Shown in pieces: positions 6,552 through 47,833 of a stretch of 64,000 nt of DNA (position 1 is the first letter of the stretch; the number at the start of each line of letters is the position of its first letter). The position numbers and the translations under genes are program-made. The DNA comes from Octopus vulgaris. Its lineage: Eukaryota. The DNA lies in the NCBI GenBank assembly GCA_951406725.2, contig OX597828.1, forward strand, positions 37,448,001 to 37,512,000, in the 5' to 3' direction. Under the pieces are notes generated by a model. The model searched no databases. It was not told the origin of the DNA and was given only the letters and a program-made list of their open reading frames with translations.

Positions 6552-7316
6552 ATTCTTTTCTACTCTAGGCACAGGGCCCGATATTTTGAGGCAGTGGGAA
6601 GCAGTCGATTAGTACGCAACTGGTATCTAATTTATCGAATCCGAAAGGATGAAAGGCAAAGTCGACTTCGGCGGAACGTAACGGCAGACGAAATACCTAC
6701 TTCTTTATTACCCATAAGGGGCTAAACATAGAGGGGACAAGCAAATACAGACAAACGGATTAAGTCGATTACATCGCCCCAGTGCGTAACTGGTATTTAA
6801 CTTATAGACCCCGAATGAAAGGATGAAAGGCAAAGTCGACTTCGGCGGAATTTGAACGCGGAACGTAAAAGCAGACGAAATGCATTATGCATTTCGCCTG
6901 GTGTGCTAACGTTTCTGCCAGCTCACCGCCTTAGGCACAAGGCCCGAATTTTTGAGGAGGTGGGGCAGTCGATTAGATTGAACCCAGTACGCAACTGATA
7001 CTTAATTTATCGAACCCGAAAGAATGTAAGGCAAAGTCGACCTCGGCGGAATTTGAACTCAGAACGTAAAGACAGACGAAATACCTATTTCTTTACTGCC
7101 TACAAGGGGCTAAACATAGAGAGGACAAACAAGGTCAGACAAAGGGATTAAGTCGATTATATCCACCCAAGTGCGTTATTGGTACTTATTTAATCGACCC
7201 CGAAAGGTTGTAAGGCAAAGTCAACCTCTGCAGAATTTGAACTCAGAACGATACGGCAGACGAAATACCACAAAGCATTTCGCCCGGCGTGTTAACGTTT
7301 CTGCCAGCTCGCCGCC
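6552..7316 (-). mobile_element. Two tandem SINE family A copies, each with an internally duplicated core
   Basis: Reverse-complement heads end at ~6930 and 7316. Core motif repeated about four times. Tail TAGGCACA(A/G)GGCCCG at 6566 and 6932. Confidence 0.8.
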
Positions 7317-25022: not shown

Positions 25023-25202
25023 CTATCTGGATGAAATCCACTCAATCACACGCCAGATTTTACCATAACGATAAATACGCGTGTGGTTCAATTGATTACA
25101 TCCGACGTTATAATTCAAATGCCCCAACTAACATCGCGCCAAACTTTCACGGAAAACAAATACAGCATTTAGAAATAAATGCAGCATAATTATAATTATA
25201 CA

Positions 25203-25371
<169 letters not shown>

Positions 25372-25485
25372 ATATTTCGGAATGGTCATATTGCCAGTTT
25401 AGCCAATAAAAACACACGCACTATATATTTGGTGTTATTTTGCTTCAGTGATATTTATTTTTTACATTAATCTTAATCTTATTTC

Positions 25486-25530
25486 GGCCAAAGTTCTTTC
25501 GTCACACTCCTGTGACCGCATCAGTGGTCC
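25486..25530 (-). ncRNA. Variant hammerhead-like motif in the PLE 3' region (left arm)
   Basis: Exact reverse complement of 30155-30199. Confidence 0.5.
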
Positions 25531-26055
25531 TTTGTTTTCTTCTCACTTACTTGTGTCTCTCCTTACTAACCGTCAGCCATTTTGTATTTCTATTGTATGT
25601 CTTCATTTGCGCATGCTTATATCTCTATGTGCGTCTATGTTTATTTAGTGTGTGTGGGGGGGGATGCCTGTAATATTTGTATCTTCTGGTTATATACATT
25701 CTTGTAATTTGTATTTTGTTTTTGTTGTTGTTGCTTTTGTTCTAATTTTATTCATGTGTTTACATCCACCCATTATTATCATTACATATGCTTGTATGTA
25801 TGTATAACAACAATATTAGTAATAATAATAATAAATCTAATCGAAAAAAAAAAAAAAAAAAAGAATATACATATACATATATATATATATACATACACAT
25901 ACATATACATATATATATATATACATATATACATATATACACACACATATACACATATACATATACATATATATACACATATACATATATATAGATATTC
26001 ATTTTTATTTCTTTAATTACCTGTGTATTTATTATGTTTGCAGGATCCACTATTG

Positions 26056-26589
26056 TCATATGTTGTGGTGTGCGCTATTGCTCCATTCTAGTTTTCTATT
26101 CAGGCTAGGTTTATTTTCTATTATATGTGTAGCTTCTGTAATTTGTCTAATTGTTGCATCTGTTCTATGTGTGGACAATATCTTAATCTCTATGTTATTG
26201 ATTGATCCCCCGTGTTCTTGTTCGGCGTGTTGGTACAGAATCGATGAGCTTTTACCTTCCTTGAGTTGTCTCCAATGTTCATTCACCCGCTCACCAATGC
26301 TTCTTGCAGTTTCCCCTACGTATGTTACTGTCTTGTTACTGCATCGTCCCTCTATACATCTTATACTATAGACCACATTTCTGGCTTTACAGTTCGTTTG
26401 TGGGCTAAATCTACATACAGTGCAATAGTTATCCGTACAGAGAGTTCTACTAAAAGGATAGGTTCTACCAATTATAGATCTGATAGGGTTGCCTGGCTTT
26501 TCAACAACCTTAATTCTTAGTTTAAGTTTATCTAGGGTCCTTCTAAAGCGGTACGCTAGTTCACCTCCAGGGGTGGTGTCAACGAACAT
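26056..26589 (-). CDS. PLE GIY-YIG endonuclease domain (C-terminal part of the same ORF as the RT)
   Basis: C..C...[11 protein letters not shown]...C...[16 protein letters not shown]...H...H...RQITEA...LN. The frame runs upstream through IRKANSWYDSHKYQSV to the poly(A) tract. Confidence 0.88.
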
Positions 26590-26611
26590 GACACTCTGGT
26601 ATTTATGGCTA

Positions 26612-28126
26612 TCATACCAAGAGTTGGCCTTCCTTATTTTCTTTTTTTTTTTTTTTTTTTTCTATAGTGTTCCATGACTTGTTCCTATAGAGTGGGCAAA
26701 TCCCATTCCTATCATTACATAATATATTATCAAATTTCTTCATGGCTCCTTTGTATACTCTGATCCTTTCTTTATGGCTGTAACCTGAGAACTGCATGCG
26801 GTGAATGAAATACTGTATGTGTCTCTTTAATTCTGTAGGCTCGCACATGCGTGACACATTTCTCATTATTCTGACGAGGTCTGCCATCAAAATATTGAAT
26901 TTGGCATTGCCCGCAATGGCTGAGTTCCGGTGGATCAGGTATTTTGAGGCCATAGGTTTTGCATAGTATGAATGAAGGATTTGGGTTTTATTTTTCACAA
27001 TTTCTAGCCAGAGTTCAGTGTCTAGTACTGGTAGTCTATGGTTGGGGTGTTTAGTGGGGTAGTCTATTGTGACCTTAATACTCTGGTGGATGGAGTTAGC
27101 TATTTGCTGGATGCTCTCCATAGTATTAGTTTCTATTACTATATCAACAGTACTTTCTTGTGGGGGTGCCTTTACTACTATATTGATATCATCAACATAG
27201 CGAGAGTACATGTTTACTAGTATGGATTTCTGCAGTAGGCATTCTTTAAGCCTTCTGTCCCACCATACCATGAAGAGGTTGGCCACATCACCAGCGATAC
27301 TAACACCGATGGCTGCCCCCTCGTCCTGGGCATATATTTTATTATTAAATTTAAATGTGTGGCCTTTTAGGGTAACTCTTATACTAGCTCCTAGTGCATG
27401 TGCGATCATTTTCTTTACCTGATGGACATTTGCGGGGCTCCGTATGGCTCTGGTCCATCCGCGCCATCTTTCTATATGTGTCTTCCTAGCCATAGAAGTA
27501 ATTGTAGGCGGTCTACCTCTTAAACATCTACTGGGGCAGAAACTACTAAGATTATGTTTATCTAAGTATTCACTATTATATGTCAGTCTAAGTAGGAGGC
27601 CCAGTTCTTCTGTGTCGACATTACAGAACTCCACCTGGCTCTCGTTGATCATCTCCACGCACTTCTCCACTGCAAAATCTACGTCAATCGATGGGTATAG
27701 GGATACCACATCCATGCTACCTACTATACATCCTGTCAAGTCACAAGTTTTGTTACAGTCACTGATCCTGCTTAGGAGATCTTCTGTGCTGTCACATACA
27801 TCAGGTGACATCCTGATTATAGGGCGTATGATCATTGAGAGGAAGTAGGAGATTCTGTAATTGCTAGCGATATTCGCTCCACAGACTGGTCTTGTTGGTG
27901 GTCCTGCTATAGGGTCAGTAAAACCTTTATGGTCCTTGCGAAGTCCATACAGTGCCGGGATATCATTGTTCCAGGCTTGGAAATTCTTTGCAGTACGTTT
28001 CTGAGGTCCCAGAACAATTGTCCACATCATCATGTGGGCATTGAGGACCTTTTCTCTCTCCTCATGCGCCTGTACAGTTGTTACTTTTGTATTGGCGATA
28101 TGAGGTTGCATTGCCTGGATGTAGGA
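26612..28126 (-). CDS. PLE reverse transcriptase (5'-truncated)
   Basis: LYGLRKDHK, RPVCGA, SMDVVSLYPSI, QDEGAAIG, RYVDD, LPVLD and YAKPMAS motifs. Separated from the EN frame only by a frameshift in an A20 run. The first ~16 aa of the listed ORF (28127-28174) are antisense of an inverted segment. Confidence 0.9.
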   Translation of the reverse strand, partial: SYIQAMQPHIANTKVTTVQAHEEREKVLNAHMMMWTIVLGPQKRTAKNFQAWNNDIPALYGLRKDHKGFTDPIAGPPTRPVCGANIASNYRISYFLSMIIRPIIRMSPDVCDSTEDLLSRISDCNKTCDLTGCIVGSMDVVSLYPSIDVDFAVEKCVEMINESQVEFCNVDTEELGLLLRLTYNSEYLDKHNLSSFCPSRCLRGRPPTITSMARKTHIERWRGWTRAIRSPANVHQVKKMIAHALGASIRVTLKGHTFKFNNKIYAQDEGAAIGVSIAGDVANLFMVWWDRRLKECLLQKSILVNMYSRYVDDINIVVKAPPQESTVDIVIETNTMESIQQIANSIHQSIKVTIDYPTKHPNHRLPVLDTELWLEIVKNKTQILHSYYAKPMASKYLIHRNSAIAGNAKFNILMADLVRIMRNVSRMCEPTELKRHIQYFIHRMQFSGYSHKERIRVYKGAMKKFDNILCNDRNGICPLYRNKSWNTIEKKKKKKENKEGQLLV

Positions 28127-28188
28127 ACGGAGAGGTGATATGCCTTCCCACGGATAAGTCCGGCAGGATGTCAATAGACAGCTTACCG
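28126..28188 (+). pseudogene. Inverted 63-bp RT segment NGEVICLPTDKSGRMSIDSLP (PLE DKG-type motif)
   Basis: Joining it to the minus-strand SYIQAM gives DKSGRMSIDSLPSY, the DK-x11-Y spacing of PLE ADKG....DY motifs. Confidence 0.8.
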
Positions 28189-28234
28189 AAGAGCCATACG
28201 GAGCTTACCGAAGACAGCTTACCGAAGACAGCTT

Positions 28235-29635
28235 ACCAGAGCCATACGGAGCCCCGCAAATGTCCATCAGGTAAAGAAAATGATCGCACATGCACTAGGA
28301 GCTAGTATAAGAGTTACCCTAAAAGGCCACACATTTAAATTTAATAATAAAATATATGCCCAGGACGAGGGGGCAGCCATCGGTGTTAGTATCGCTGGTG
28401 ATGTGGCCAACCTCTTCATGGTATGGTGGGACAGAAGGCTTAAAGAATGCCTACTGCAGAAATCCATACTAGTAAACATGTACTCTCGCTATGTTGATGA
28501 TATCAATATAGTAGTAAAGGCACCCCCACAAGAAAGTACTGTTGATATAGTAATAGAAACTAATACTATGGAGAGCATCCAGCAAATAGCTAACTCCATC
28601 CACCAGAGTATTAAGGTCACAATAGACTACCCCACTAAACACCCCAACCATAGACTACCAGTACTAGACACTGAACTCTGGCTAGAAATTGTGAAAAATA
28701 AAACCCAAATCCTTCATTCATACTATGCAAAACCTATGGCCTCAAAATACCTGATCCACCGGAACTCAGCCATTGCGGGCAATGCCAAATTCAATATTTT
28801 GATGGCAGACCTCGTCAGAATAATGAGAAATGTGTCACGCATGTGCGAGCCTACAGAATTAAAGAGACACATACAGTATTTCATTCACCGCATGCAGTTC
28901 TCAGGTTACAGCCATAAAGGATCAGAGTATACAAAGGAGCCATGAAGAAATTTGATAATATATTATGTAATGATAGGAATGGGATTTGCCCACTCTATAG
29001 GAACAAGTCATGGAACACTATAGAAAAAAAAAAAAAAAAAAAAAAATAAGAAAATAAGGAAGGCCAACTCTTGGTATGATAGCCATAAATACCAGAGTGT
29101 CATGTTCGTTGACACCACCCCTGGAGGTGAACTAGCGTACCGCTTTAGAAGGACCCTAGATAAACTTAAACTAAGAATTAAGGTTGTTGAAAAGCCAGGC
29201 AACCCTATCAGATCTATAATTGGTAGAACCTATCCTTTTAGTAGAACTCTCTGTACGGATAACTATTGCACTGTATGTAGATTTAGCCCACAAACGAACT
29301 GTAAAGCCAGAAATGTGGTCTATAGTATAAGATGTATAGAGGGACGATGCAGTAACAAGACAGTAACATACGTAGGGGAAACTGCAAGAAGCATTGGTGA
29401 GCGGGTGAATGAACATTGGAGACAACTCAAGGAAGGTAAAAGCTCATCGATTCTGTACCAACACTCCGAACAAGAACACGGGGGATCAATCAATAACATA
29501 GAGATTAAGATATTGTCCACACATAGAACAGATGCAACAATTAGACAAATTACAAAAGCTACACATATAATAGAAAATAAACCTAGCCTGAATAGAAAAC
29601 TAGAATGGAGCAATAGCGCACACCACAACATATGA
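28235..29635 (+). pseudogene. Second PLE RT(3' half)-GIY-YIG copy, frameshifted
   Basis: Same protein as the left arm. Differences: a 4-bp deletion near 28917 (CATAAAGAAAGG to CATAAAGG), an altered poly(A), and A-to-S and E-to-K substitutions. Confidence 0.9.
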
Positions 29636-30154
29636 CAATAGTGGATCCTGCAAACATAATAAATACACAGGTAATTAAAGAAATAGAAATGAATATCTAT
29701 ATATATGTATATGTGTATATATATGTATATGTATATGTGTATATGTGTGTGTATATATGTATATATATATATATATATGTATATGTATGTGTATGTATAT
29801 ATATATATATGTATATGTATATTCTTTTTTTTTTTTTTCTCGATTAGATTTATTATTATTATTACTAATATTGTTGTTATACATACATACAAGCATATGT
29901 AATGATAATAATGGGTGGATGTAAACACATGAATAAAATTAGAACAAAAGCAACAACAACAAAAACAAAATACAAATTACAAGAATGTATATAACCAGAA
30001 GATACAAATATTACAGGCATCCCCCCCACACACACACTAAATAAACATAGACGCACATAGAGATATAAGCATGCGCAAATGAAGACATACAATAGAAATA
30101 CAAAATGGCTGACGGTTAGTAAGGAGAGACACAAGTAAGTGAGAAGAAAACAAA

Positions 30155-30199
30155 GGACCACTGATGCGGTCACAGGAGTGTGACGAAAGAACTTTGGCC
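30155..30199 (+). ncRNA. Variant hammerhead-like motif in the PLE 3' region (right arm)
   Basis: gga-cca CUGAUGC g GUCACA-GGAG-UGUGAC GAAA G-AA-C UU ugg-cc. Perfect 6-bp stem II, minimal stem III, CUU site. The core deviates at position 9. Confidence 0.5.
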
Positions 30200-30386
30200 G
30201 AAATAAGATTAAGATTAATGTAAAAAATAAATATCACTGAAGCAAAATAACACCAAATATAGTGCGTGTGTTTTTATTGGCTAAACTGGCAATATGACCA
30301 TTCCGAAATATAACAATATCTGTTTCAACACACGACTTCACATAAAAAATCTTGCACAACAAATATTTAAACGTATATATATATAC

Positions 30387-30480
<94 letters not shown>

Positions 30481-32798: not shown

Positions 32799-34920
32799 CA
32801 GGGCTGCGGAATTTAAAGATCAATTAATCGATTAATCGTTAATTTATCTTAACGATTATATTTTTGTTTTAGTGATTAAAATTTTATTAAACGGTTTCAA
32901 ATTTAATTTTCTACCCATCGTTAATAAATGTACCGGAAGTCGGGAAGCAATAGTAAGAACAGTAAATGGCGGCAGAGAAGAATCGAGTTATGAAATATAA
33001 ACCTATATCAGGTCGTTTACATGAACATTTGGGATTTAAATTGTTGGCTGACGGTAATATCAAAACTGCTGATGACGTTTATTGCATCTATTGCGACAAA
33101 TCGTTCGCATACATTGGATCTAACACATGGCTTACTTATTTACCACCTTCAAAACGAACACTAGCTACGGTATTTGAAACCTCAGCTCACAAAGTCAGCT
33201 TCATTTAGTCAGTATTCAACGCCAGTGTCATCTACCTTCAAGTAGACTGCTTTGAGTCAGTTTTATCGTCAGTCTGATCATCCGGTGAGTTCTACCGTGT
33301 AAAGTGACATTAAAATATCACTTGCAAACTGGATAGCTAATAATGGTAGACCAATATCGATAGTAGAAGTTGATGGTTTTCAGCAAGTATTACGTACAGC
33401 GCTTCAAAACACCAAACATAAACTACCTTACCGACGCACAATTGATAAAACGTTGGCTGATTTTTATAACAGCACAAGAGAAAGTGGCAAAGAAGCAGTG
33501 AAAAATTCAAAGGCAATTGCACTAACATCTGACTTTTGGACATCCTTAAGTAATGAACGTTATTGCAGAATCATTGGCCATTGGGTTGCTGATGACTGGA
33601 ATTTAATAAGTATTATTCTTGAATTTGTGCATGCTGTTGAACGTCACTAATCTAACAATGTTGCTGAGTTATATAAACAATTTGTAAAAGACTGGGATAT
33701 AACAAAGAAGATTCAGGTTCTAGTAACAGACAAAGCATGAAATTTGGTTTCAGCTGTTAATCAAACTAGTTTTGCTCATATTCCGTGTTTGGCTCATAGC
33801 CTGCAGTTGAGCCTATTGCATAGATTTAAAGCCGGAGATACAGAAACATTGTTTGTTAAATGTCGAAAAATCATAGGACATTTAAACATAGCCCTGTCCA
33901 CACAACTGAATTGCAGAATTGTAGTGATTCACCATTGCGTAAGCTACAGCTAGTTGGAACAGTGCTTTTAAAATGCTGCAGAGTCTACTGCAGGCCAGAG
34001 AAGTAATATCCATCTACATGTCAGACGAAGAGAAGCAATATAAAGGTCCAAAACTGTTCGATTCTGATTGGGAAAAGATTTCAAAATACATCAACGTTTT
34101 AGACTTATTCTGTCAAGCCACGGTCCTGCTTGGCGGTGAGAAATATATTTGTCGTGTAGCTGTGTATTGCCACTGTTAATGTCTTTGACAAAGTACATGA
34201 CTGTAAATGGTGGTGATCCAAGTTATATAGTCAGATTCAAGGAAGCATCTGTTAATGATTTCAGTAAAAGTGTAGCTGACATGAAAAGTATTGAAATATT
34301 ACAGATTGCAACAGCACTTGATACACGATATAAAAACTTGAAGTGTCAATCAGATGATTCAAAAGAACAAACGTGGTTACTTATAGGACGACAAATAGCA
34401 GTTGATATTAATGACGATCGGTTGAAGACAAATGCACAAGATGATACTGACAGTGTCAATAAAACTATATGCAAATCCAATGAAAAACGTATTAAGCTGA
34501 TGGAGTCTGACTTAGACTTAGATGAAGATGCCGAAAACGCTTCTGATGAAGTACAGCGATATAAAATCGAGAAAAAAGTTGCTGAATCAGTTGATCCACT
34601 ACAATGATGGAAATTTAATGAACATCAATATCCGAAATTGGAATTTTTTGCTAAGATTGTTCTGTGCAAACCAGCTACTTCGGTTCCACGGGAACGATTA
34701 TTTAGCTTTGCTGGTTACATTGTTAACAAGATGCGCTCATTACTTGAACCAAATGCTGTTAACATGCTTGTGTGTTTGCGTAACTGGTTATCGAACAACA
34801 TCTGAGTGAGAAAACGTCTATGCTGTTTCTTGCTTTTAACTGAATTTTAATTGAAATATCAGAAACTTGTTAATACATGCAACTACAGACGTTTTTGTGC
34901 TTTAATCGAATCGATTCCTT
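32799..34920 (+). mobile_element. Decayed hAT (Ac/ZBED1-like) DNA transposon
   Basis: 5' end CAGGGCTG with subterminal TTAATCGATTAATCG repeats. Right TIR not found. Confidence 0.8.
32966..34806 (+). pseudogene. hAT transposase pseudogene (BED finger, DDE domain, C-terminal dimerization domain)
   Basis: VYCIYC (BED), IALTSDFWTS, HIPCLAHSLQL, ALDTRYK, and YP.L...AKIVLCKPATSVP.ERLFS.AG, spread over several frames with stops. Confidence 0.88.
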
Positions 34921-47417: not shown

Positions 47418-47833
47418 GGCGGCGAGCTGGCAGAAACGTTAGCATGCCGGGCGAAATGCCTCGCGGTATTTCGTCTGCCGTTACGTTCTGAGTTCTAATT
47501 CTGCCGAGGTCGACTGTGCCTTTCATCCTTTCGGGGTCGATTAAATAAGTACCAGTTTCGCACTGGGGTCAATGTAATCGACTTAATCCGTTTGTCTATC
47601 CTTGTTTGTCCTCTCTGTGCTTAGCCCCTTGTGGGTAGTAAAGAAATGGGTATTTCGTCTGTCATTGCGTTCTGAGTTCAAATTCCTCCGAGGTCAACTT
47701 TGCCTTTCAGCCTTTCGGGGTCGATAAATTAAGTACCAGCTACAAATTGGAGTCCATGTAATCGACTTAATCCGTTTCTCTGTTCATGTTTGTCCTCTCT
47801 ATGTTTAGCCCCTTGTGGGCAATAAGGAAATAG
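47418..47833 (+). mobile_element. SINE family A (duplicated core) inserted into a head-C SINE, with 19-bp TSD
   Basis: AAAACACTTCATTTCACGT at 47396-47414 and 47834-47852. Confidence 0.88.

Follow-up and report, generated by a model that had tools for sequence, protein, structure and literature searches.

Two copies of one Penelope-like element (PLE) lie with their 5' ends facing (head-to-head) at 25364-30373 of the window, the stretch of 64,000 nucleotides of Octopus vulgaris DNA analysed here. Between these two copies we observed a joint of two shared bases, a flush 68|69 boundary in element coordinates, a 670-bp gap and inserts copied from the retained ends. In our estimate there is about an even chance that this centre is a deletion scar in a hairpin-derived pair, sealed by priming of the theta type, and not a flipped piece of the element. 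The hairpin, the cut or block, the enzyme, the order of the steps and their timing are what we infer. The junction is real and well resolved, is made of known kinds of event and was seen in one locus, which cannot decide between deletion and twin priming. Its value is that of a lead for a family-wide survey of PLE integration joints. The available text of two papers states as open how PLEs complete integration and form inverted pairs (PMC8557442, PMC11167929). In a young octopus family with many near-identical copies the junctions can be read base by base. Should other copies show flush pieces and stutters at the stem edge again, a survey could put the models of fold-back, twin priming and host repair to the test.

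Identity and structure of the paired copies

The element is a PLE with an RT and, at the C-terminus, a GIY-YIG domain. Proteins labelled Octopus vulgaris matched the local RT at up to 100%, and the YVDD and QxxGAAIG motifs were found in the element. Pfam RVT_1 (E 0.0006) and GIY-YIG (E 0.0009) gave weak matches, both below the cut-off. RT and C-terminal GIY-YIG are in a single frame in protein P0001 and the long homologues, and the window copy is frameshifted. The position of the DKG motif upstream of the RT core reads DKS(G) throughout the lineage of the element. The linker that separates RT from EN has the CX2-5CxxC form of Neptune and Nematis (CTDNYCTVC). In the EN, two paired Cys ahead of YVGET and two His behind it were seen by eye and were missed by a CCHH pattern of fixed spacing. 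In Naiad/Chlamys the EN is N-terminal, whereas that of the octopus element is C-terminal. As far as the available text goes, 336 recently active PLE insertions in 31 families are reported for O. vulgaris (PMC13282606).

The coordinates of the features are given in Table 1. Element positions were counted from window position 28123, which is element position 1. (TA)n is abundant in the window, which is animal DNA, and no target duplication was readable at the (TA)n flanks of the pair. The left copy runs from element position 69 to the 3' end without a tail, and inverted repeats of about 2.09 kb flank a 780-bp centre. Between the two arms we counted 4 substitutions and 6 small indels, of which 5 fall in simple repeats, indicating a young event. 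An A-run breaks the frame of the left copy near 26640-26660, between RT and EN. An A-run stands in both arms where P0001 reads RTKKK, and both have Ile where P0001 has Thr; as sequence characters, the common A-run and Ile suggest one source for both arms. The right-arm A-run at 29025-29050 also breaks the RT/EN frame, at a place where P0001 is in frame, and a 4-base deletion at 28915 is found in the right arm alone. The pair is dead and its scar ordinary-looking, with no sign of function.

Table 1. Features of the head-to-head PLE pair, in window coordinates
Feature	Position	Strand	Basis or remark
(TA)n target, left flank	25202..25363	.	sequence
Left copy, 5'-truncated PLE (RT then GIY-YIG)	25364..28124	-	P0001 98.6% identical over 499 aa
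670-bp stretch found in left copy only, element 69-738	27455..28124	-	comparison of arms
Head-to-head joint, 2 shared bases	28123..28124	.	loose ends at 28123 in X1, X6, X7, X7 record 20
68-bp piece, element 1-68: RNGEVICLPTDKSGRMSIDSLP + two bases of Asn codon	28123..28190	+	flush with left-copy start
44-base templated insert: B (742-756), A (58-68), A (54-68), A (54-65)	28191..28234	+	parsed in element coordinates
14-base unit, 2.6 perfect copies inside insert	28202..28237	+	tandem-repeat reading
Right arm, element 739 to 3' end	28235..30319	+	self-comparison with left arm
Minimal-hammerhead-like motif, 3' repeat	30161..30214	+ (mirrored in left arm)	stem II present, core position 9 = C
54-base extension, one end only	30320..30373	+	continues frame from ATG 30294, resembling relatives' N-termini
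(TA)n target, right flank	30374..30480	.	sequence

In the available text of PMC8557442, the usual PLE insertion has inverted copies truncated at the 5' end, a tail on one side and a microsatellite target. Like the head-to-head insertions of Penelope, Neptune, Nematis and Naiad, as far as these are described in the portions available (PMC8557442, PMC3846280, PMC11167929), the octopus pair has at its 5' end an inverted copy that is 5'-truncated, 3' ends of the element on either flank, a microsatellite target and a one-sided extension that likely carries on the ORF start. It is unlike the pairs described there in that its extension is 54 bases long instead of 30-40, and in that its centre holds the flush 68-bp piece and a templated insert of four pieces.

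The head-to-head joint

An earlier reading made from the sequence alone (hereafter the sequence-only reading) had proposed a precise 63-bp inversion next to a minus arm ending at SYIQAM (28126). The piece is in fact 68 bp long. Native sequence departs from the window just before 28123, where loose ends were found in 3/3 contig runs, and the left copy begins at 28124. The residue before YIQAM is natively N: all 10 O. vulgaris-labelled proteins holding the motif read ...DSLP-N-YIQAM, and Asn precedes the aromatic residue in 69 of the 74 motif matches among 161 proteins, one match being spurious. When 28123-28190 is followed by the minus copy from 28124, the reading of P0001 is obtained exactly, whereas the join first proposed gives S. 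The supposed native contiguity TTACCG-TCCTAC was thus wrong, and the 63-bp inversion with an S codon was ruled out, since relatives read N. Judged from the sequence, the 'S' of SYIQAM is a chimeric junction codon. An ACGG/CCGT inverted repeat as the cause of the joint was rejected as well, as it rested on the wrong S codon. What did stand was the adjacency itself: the segment with DKSG natively adjoins YIQAM, octopus-labelled proteins reading DKSG...SLPNYIQAM in 10/10 cases. The roughly 670 bp said to be skipped by the right arm and kept in the spacer also stood, at exactly 670 bp.

Whether anything was lost at the joint depends on one base. The claim that nothing was lost holds if the Asn codon ends in C, giving a flush 68|69 boundary; otherwise one base was lost. 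If the native Asn codon ends in T, the joint shares just 1 base. The diverged contig X7 record 20 aligns up to 28124, favouring an Asn codon ending in C.

The 44-base mosaic

The insert is built from A, at the end of the 68-bp piece, and B, at the start of the right arm. The mosaic given by the sequence-only reading was recovered in full, with A at 28177, B at 28191, a partial A, A at 28213, A' at 28227 and B at 28239, and the AGC and ACC microhomologies are indeed shared at two joints. As each piece maps once in native order, the A/B repeats are foreign to the native element, and their reading as native sequence was rejected. The pieces are 11-15 bases long; they end 0, 0, 0 and 3 bases away from the left end, or begin 3 bases from the right end. 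No donor lies more than 18 bases away from the two joined ends, and 1-3 bases are shared. When 8-mers were taken from 30 bases on each side of the join, they covered 44/44 insert bases, compared with 25 in the best of 20,000 shuffles, indicating a mosaic beyond chance.

The bases shared at the five joints number 1, 3, 1, 1 and 3 when counted against native donors, and 1, 3, 3, 3 and 3 when counted against the chimeric end. At the two A-to-A joints AGA (3 bases) is common with the already chimeric A+B end, and 1 base with the native one. The 17-mer 28176-28192 recurs at 28212-28228, two bases past native A, and a chimeric DNA end therefore fits as the template. The two extra matching bases have a chance of about 0.07, from a per-base match rate of 0.26. 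As a sequence argument, the AGA match speaks weakly for chimeric DNA rather than element RNA as the template, and the second AGA joint may have arisen from the first by slippage. Bases native to both ends were retained (66-68 and the register of 739-741), so both ends were free when the mosaic formed, and a late rearrangement of a simple A-to-B joint was excluded on the same ground. The proposal of repeated microhomology-primed template switches during the joining of two ends was thus borne out.

The enzyme to which the stutter had been ascribed, the PLE RT, fared less well. In the available part of a study of C. elegans theta scars, single-base priming, inserts <25 bp and repeated cycles are described, about 85% being primed within 10 bp of the ends (PMC5068794). 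The octopus stutter matches these scars in insert size, donor distance and 1-3 base priming, its flank-templated inserts being <25 bp and near the ends. The centre as a whole is like theta-mediated end joining in that a putative deletion is sealed by short flank-copied inserts in several cycles; it is unlike the scars described there in that its ends are retrotransposon DNA and one breakpoint lies at a predicted stem-loop edge (PMC5068794). From these scar traits polymerase theta, as the putative enzyme, likely had a role at the mosaic.

A likeness to telomerase had also been suggested. The 14-base unit in 2.6 copies offers an analogy, and host end-joining reproduces the same pattern. We found no dedicated conserved RNA template of the kind used in telomerase-like repeat addition: the unit is ordinary coding sequence, and terminal redundancy exists only in the chimeric end, so that a telomerase-style dedicated template was rejected. 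In the literature searched, which was covered in part and in main texts, no iterated templated inserts at PLE head-to-head joints were described; the supplements of PMC8557442 and PMC13282606, outside this scope, may hold the family.

Origin of the centre

The 68 bp had been explained as a piece inverted by twin priming. If it is taken as the tip of the right arm, a flipped piece is unnecessary, since this tip together with a 670-bp deletion gives the same sequence and the same two junctions. The original insertion would then have been a palindrome with 2.76-kb arms, forming a predicted hairpin in which the 68 bp were the tip of the right copy plus the loop. Both target ends would have been primed at the two start sites of the element, or one cDNA would have folded back, leaving one tailed and one tail-less arm. 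In the portions of the literature available, purified Poseidon protein cuts and extends both target strands, with two start sites that bracket the tail (PMC11167929), palindromic head-to-head PLE joints prompted a self-priming proposal (PMC3846280), and fold-back priming with a 35-bp spacer was seen in yeast (PMC10622511). The arms would have met via two shared bases with a loop of 66 bases between them; a cut or block at the edge of loop and stem would then have cost the right arm element 69-738. With one base of pairing, the left end would have primed on the right and copied 14 bases of B, after which the right end would have primed three times on the extended left end (ACC, AGA, AGA), and the ends would have closed through AGC.

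With a deletion, the boundary would be flush because the loop meets the stem at that point. The predicted pre-deletion centre, with the stem closing at element 69-70 and 68 unpaired, restates this flush boundary and is no separate test. The deletion model requires the two arm ends to lie within 68 bases of each other, and a counterpoint is that this is a single locus of which an undeleted allele was not seen.

A different account of the boundary is a broken and flipped fragment, which we consider quite unlikely. The first cDNA (or a hybrid) would have run past position 1 and broken at 68|69, the loose 68 bases would have been recaptured backwards via two shared bases, and the new end would have been joined to the second cDNA by theta-type repair. 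A single break would account for the flush boundary, and at the DNA level the mosaic reads just as it does with a deletion. However, zero loss at either new end and a reverse recapture are required, and the break site is left unexplained, as it differs from the ATT motif that the single PLE protein examined prefers in the available part of PMC11167929.

As to the timing of the deletion, spacers of 35-52 bp suppress palindrome breakage in duplex DNA, and asymmetric central deletions stabilise long palindromes, according to the portion of a review available (PMC8701086). Mre11 attack in yeast is confined to loops <9 bases in the available text of PMC8053094. A late chromosomal break is less likely given such stable spacers and loop limits. 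The octopus centre is like the revised centres of long palindromes in having a putative asymmetric deletion beside the centre, with a spacer that would have gone from 66 to 780 bp; unlike the perfect transgene palindromes described there, its predicted 66-base loop would already have been fairly stable in duplex (PMC8701086). Integration, with its single strands, is therefore the stage that the event fits best, and the cut or block in the right arm would most likely have come then or shortly afterwards, as long as single strands lay exposed.

Twin priming with re-priming by the PLE RT, the sequence-only reading in corrected form, is possible though rather unlikely. The second cDNA would stop at 739, jump to the first RNA at a point immediately upstream of where the first cDNA ended, slip back several times to 68 and once to B, copy 68 to 1 and anneal to the first cDNA. 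The topology is the same as that of an L1 5' inversion, and three pieces of the mosaic end exactly at 68. One-base jumps onto template ends are made by R2 and group II intron RTs. On the other hand, three one-base jumps and a return to B on already copied RNA are required, where a chimeric DNA template gives 3-base matches instead.

The comparison with L1 is mixed. Like L1 twin priming as it is described in the text available, the octopus junction has a short inverted 5' piece opposing a long 3' piece, with adjacent breakpoints (flush) and a short microhomology of 2 shared bases. In classic L1 twin priming a genomic DNA end is the second primer. Unlike in such insertions, where the second primer is a target end with a duplication, the octopus piece joins an element arm between (TA)n flanks: its far-end partner is a second element copy and not target DNA, the junction is without poly(A) priming, and it shows the iterated A/B stutter. 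The second primer in the octopus case would be a 2.1-kb second cDNA. Published L1 data, in the portions available, also cut both ways. The second priming adjoins the end of the first cDNA (PMC11702581), and flush points are not rare, at 300/1703 by our own arithmetic, in inverted insertions of which 66% have an internal deletion and 17% a duplication (10.1101/2024.08.27.596794). Twin priming with switching has been described, but in 23/3,598 L1 insertions (10.1101/2024.08.27.596794). For PLEs, the available text of PMC11167929 describes a protein that extends both strands and is a predicted dimer.

A further reading, which we regard as unlikely, is that PLE head-to-head insertions would have a hairpin or two cDNAs as an intermediate, the stem-loop edge of which would set the place where synthesis stalls, the telomerase-related RT itself realigning there and recopying the 14-base unit. 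If it were true, the second half of PLE transposition would be preserved, like a fossil, in such junctions across the octopus genome.

Other copies and relatives

The three contig runs gave the native context around the junction, and among 15 joints listed from them neither the native 28124/28190 link nor the mosaic was found. Nor was the mosaic junction seen in independent samples among the 24 listed of about 4,000 contig pieces. This absence would fit an artefact of assembly or polishing in the middle of a long inverted repeat, as would the depth over 28182-28234, which is about that expected from native matches to 28182-28190 alone. Against this, the arms differ at 10 places, the flanks differ and the tail is one-sided, both joints have short shared bases in exact native register, and the sequencing runs compared need not carry a young insertion. 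We consider an artefact very unlikely, and it ranks with the broken and flipped fragment among the less likely readings.

In one contig run (X1) a loose end was the reverse complement of a tail-less 3' end joined at 28709, with 2 shared bases. This is a second head-to-head joint of the family, and no stutter was found in the 23 bases visible. Ten relative loci were also compared, too few for a rate. Terminal direct repeats were present in four of them, and a head-to-head joint in one (L008, 892/893), with no templated piece of at least 10 bases. The joints of L008 and X1, being without stutter, speak for the deletion model and against twin priming with re-priming. Stutters are not a fixed trait of PLE head-to-head joints, though two joints give no rate.

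A joint 27851/28180 (X1, X6) links element 342 to 58 in another copy, with unreadable orientation; element 58 in this joint is the AGC spot also used in the mosaic. In L008 (1-1040) a long minus arm reaches the N-terminus of the ORF, the arms being 95% identical. The N-terminal coding region of L002 (1-2400) has a long in-frame array of tandem repeats of about 105 bases. A PLE-like contig was found in a bacterial metagenome-assembled genome (L010, JAAELB010000961.1) and is likely animal contamination. An exact 28-base pattern had 0 matches among contigs from metagenomes and 0 among those from prokaryote genomes.

Ends of the element

The 54-base extension is likely a PLE tail. A profile of the N-termini of 4 relatives ranked it 1/2519 segments (E 0.047), whereas pairwise comparisons gave nothing significant, and the tail peptide had 0 matches among 1.8 billion proteins. 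The frame from ATG 30294 has a [FY][ND]TR motif that also occurs near the start of L001, P0126 and P0129. With this motif as a marker, the ORF would truly begin upstream of where the annotated octopus proteins start.

Minimal hammerheads are described in PLE repeats in the available part of PMC4209133. In the motif at 30161, core position 9 is C in place of A, and an Rfam search gave no hammerhead match, the only matches being microsatellite-driven or due to chance. Relatives L001 and L007 have a canonical hammerhead core at the same place, 3' of the ORF.

Other observations

Fragments of the element ORF are spliced into gene models in P0076 and other octopus entries, probably as annotation noise; one such octopus gene model is named a dynein regulatory complex subunit 6-like isoform. 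Elsewhere in the window, two open frames at 33303-34607 (+) resemble pieces of a hAT-type transposase by eye. A dispersed repeat of 350 bases is present at 6967-7316 and 47418-47767 in opposite orientations, the two copies being 87% alike.
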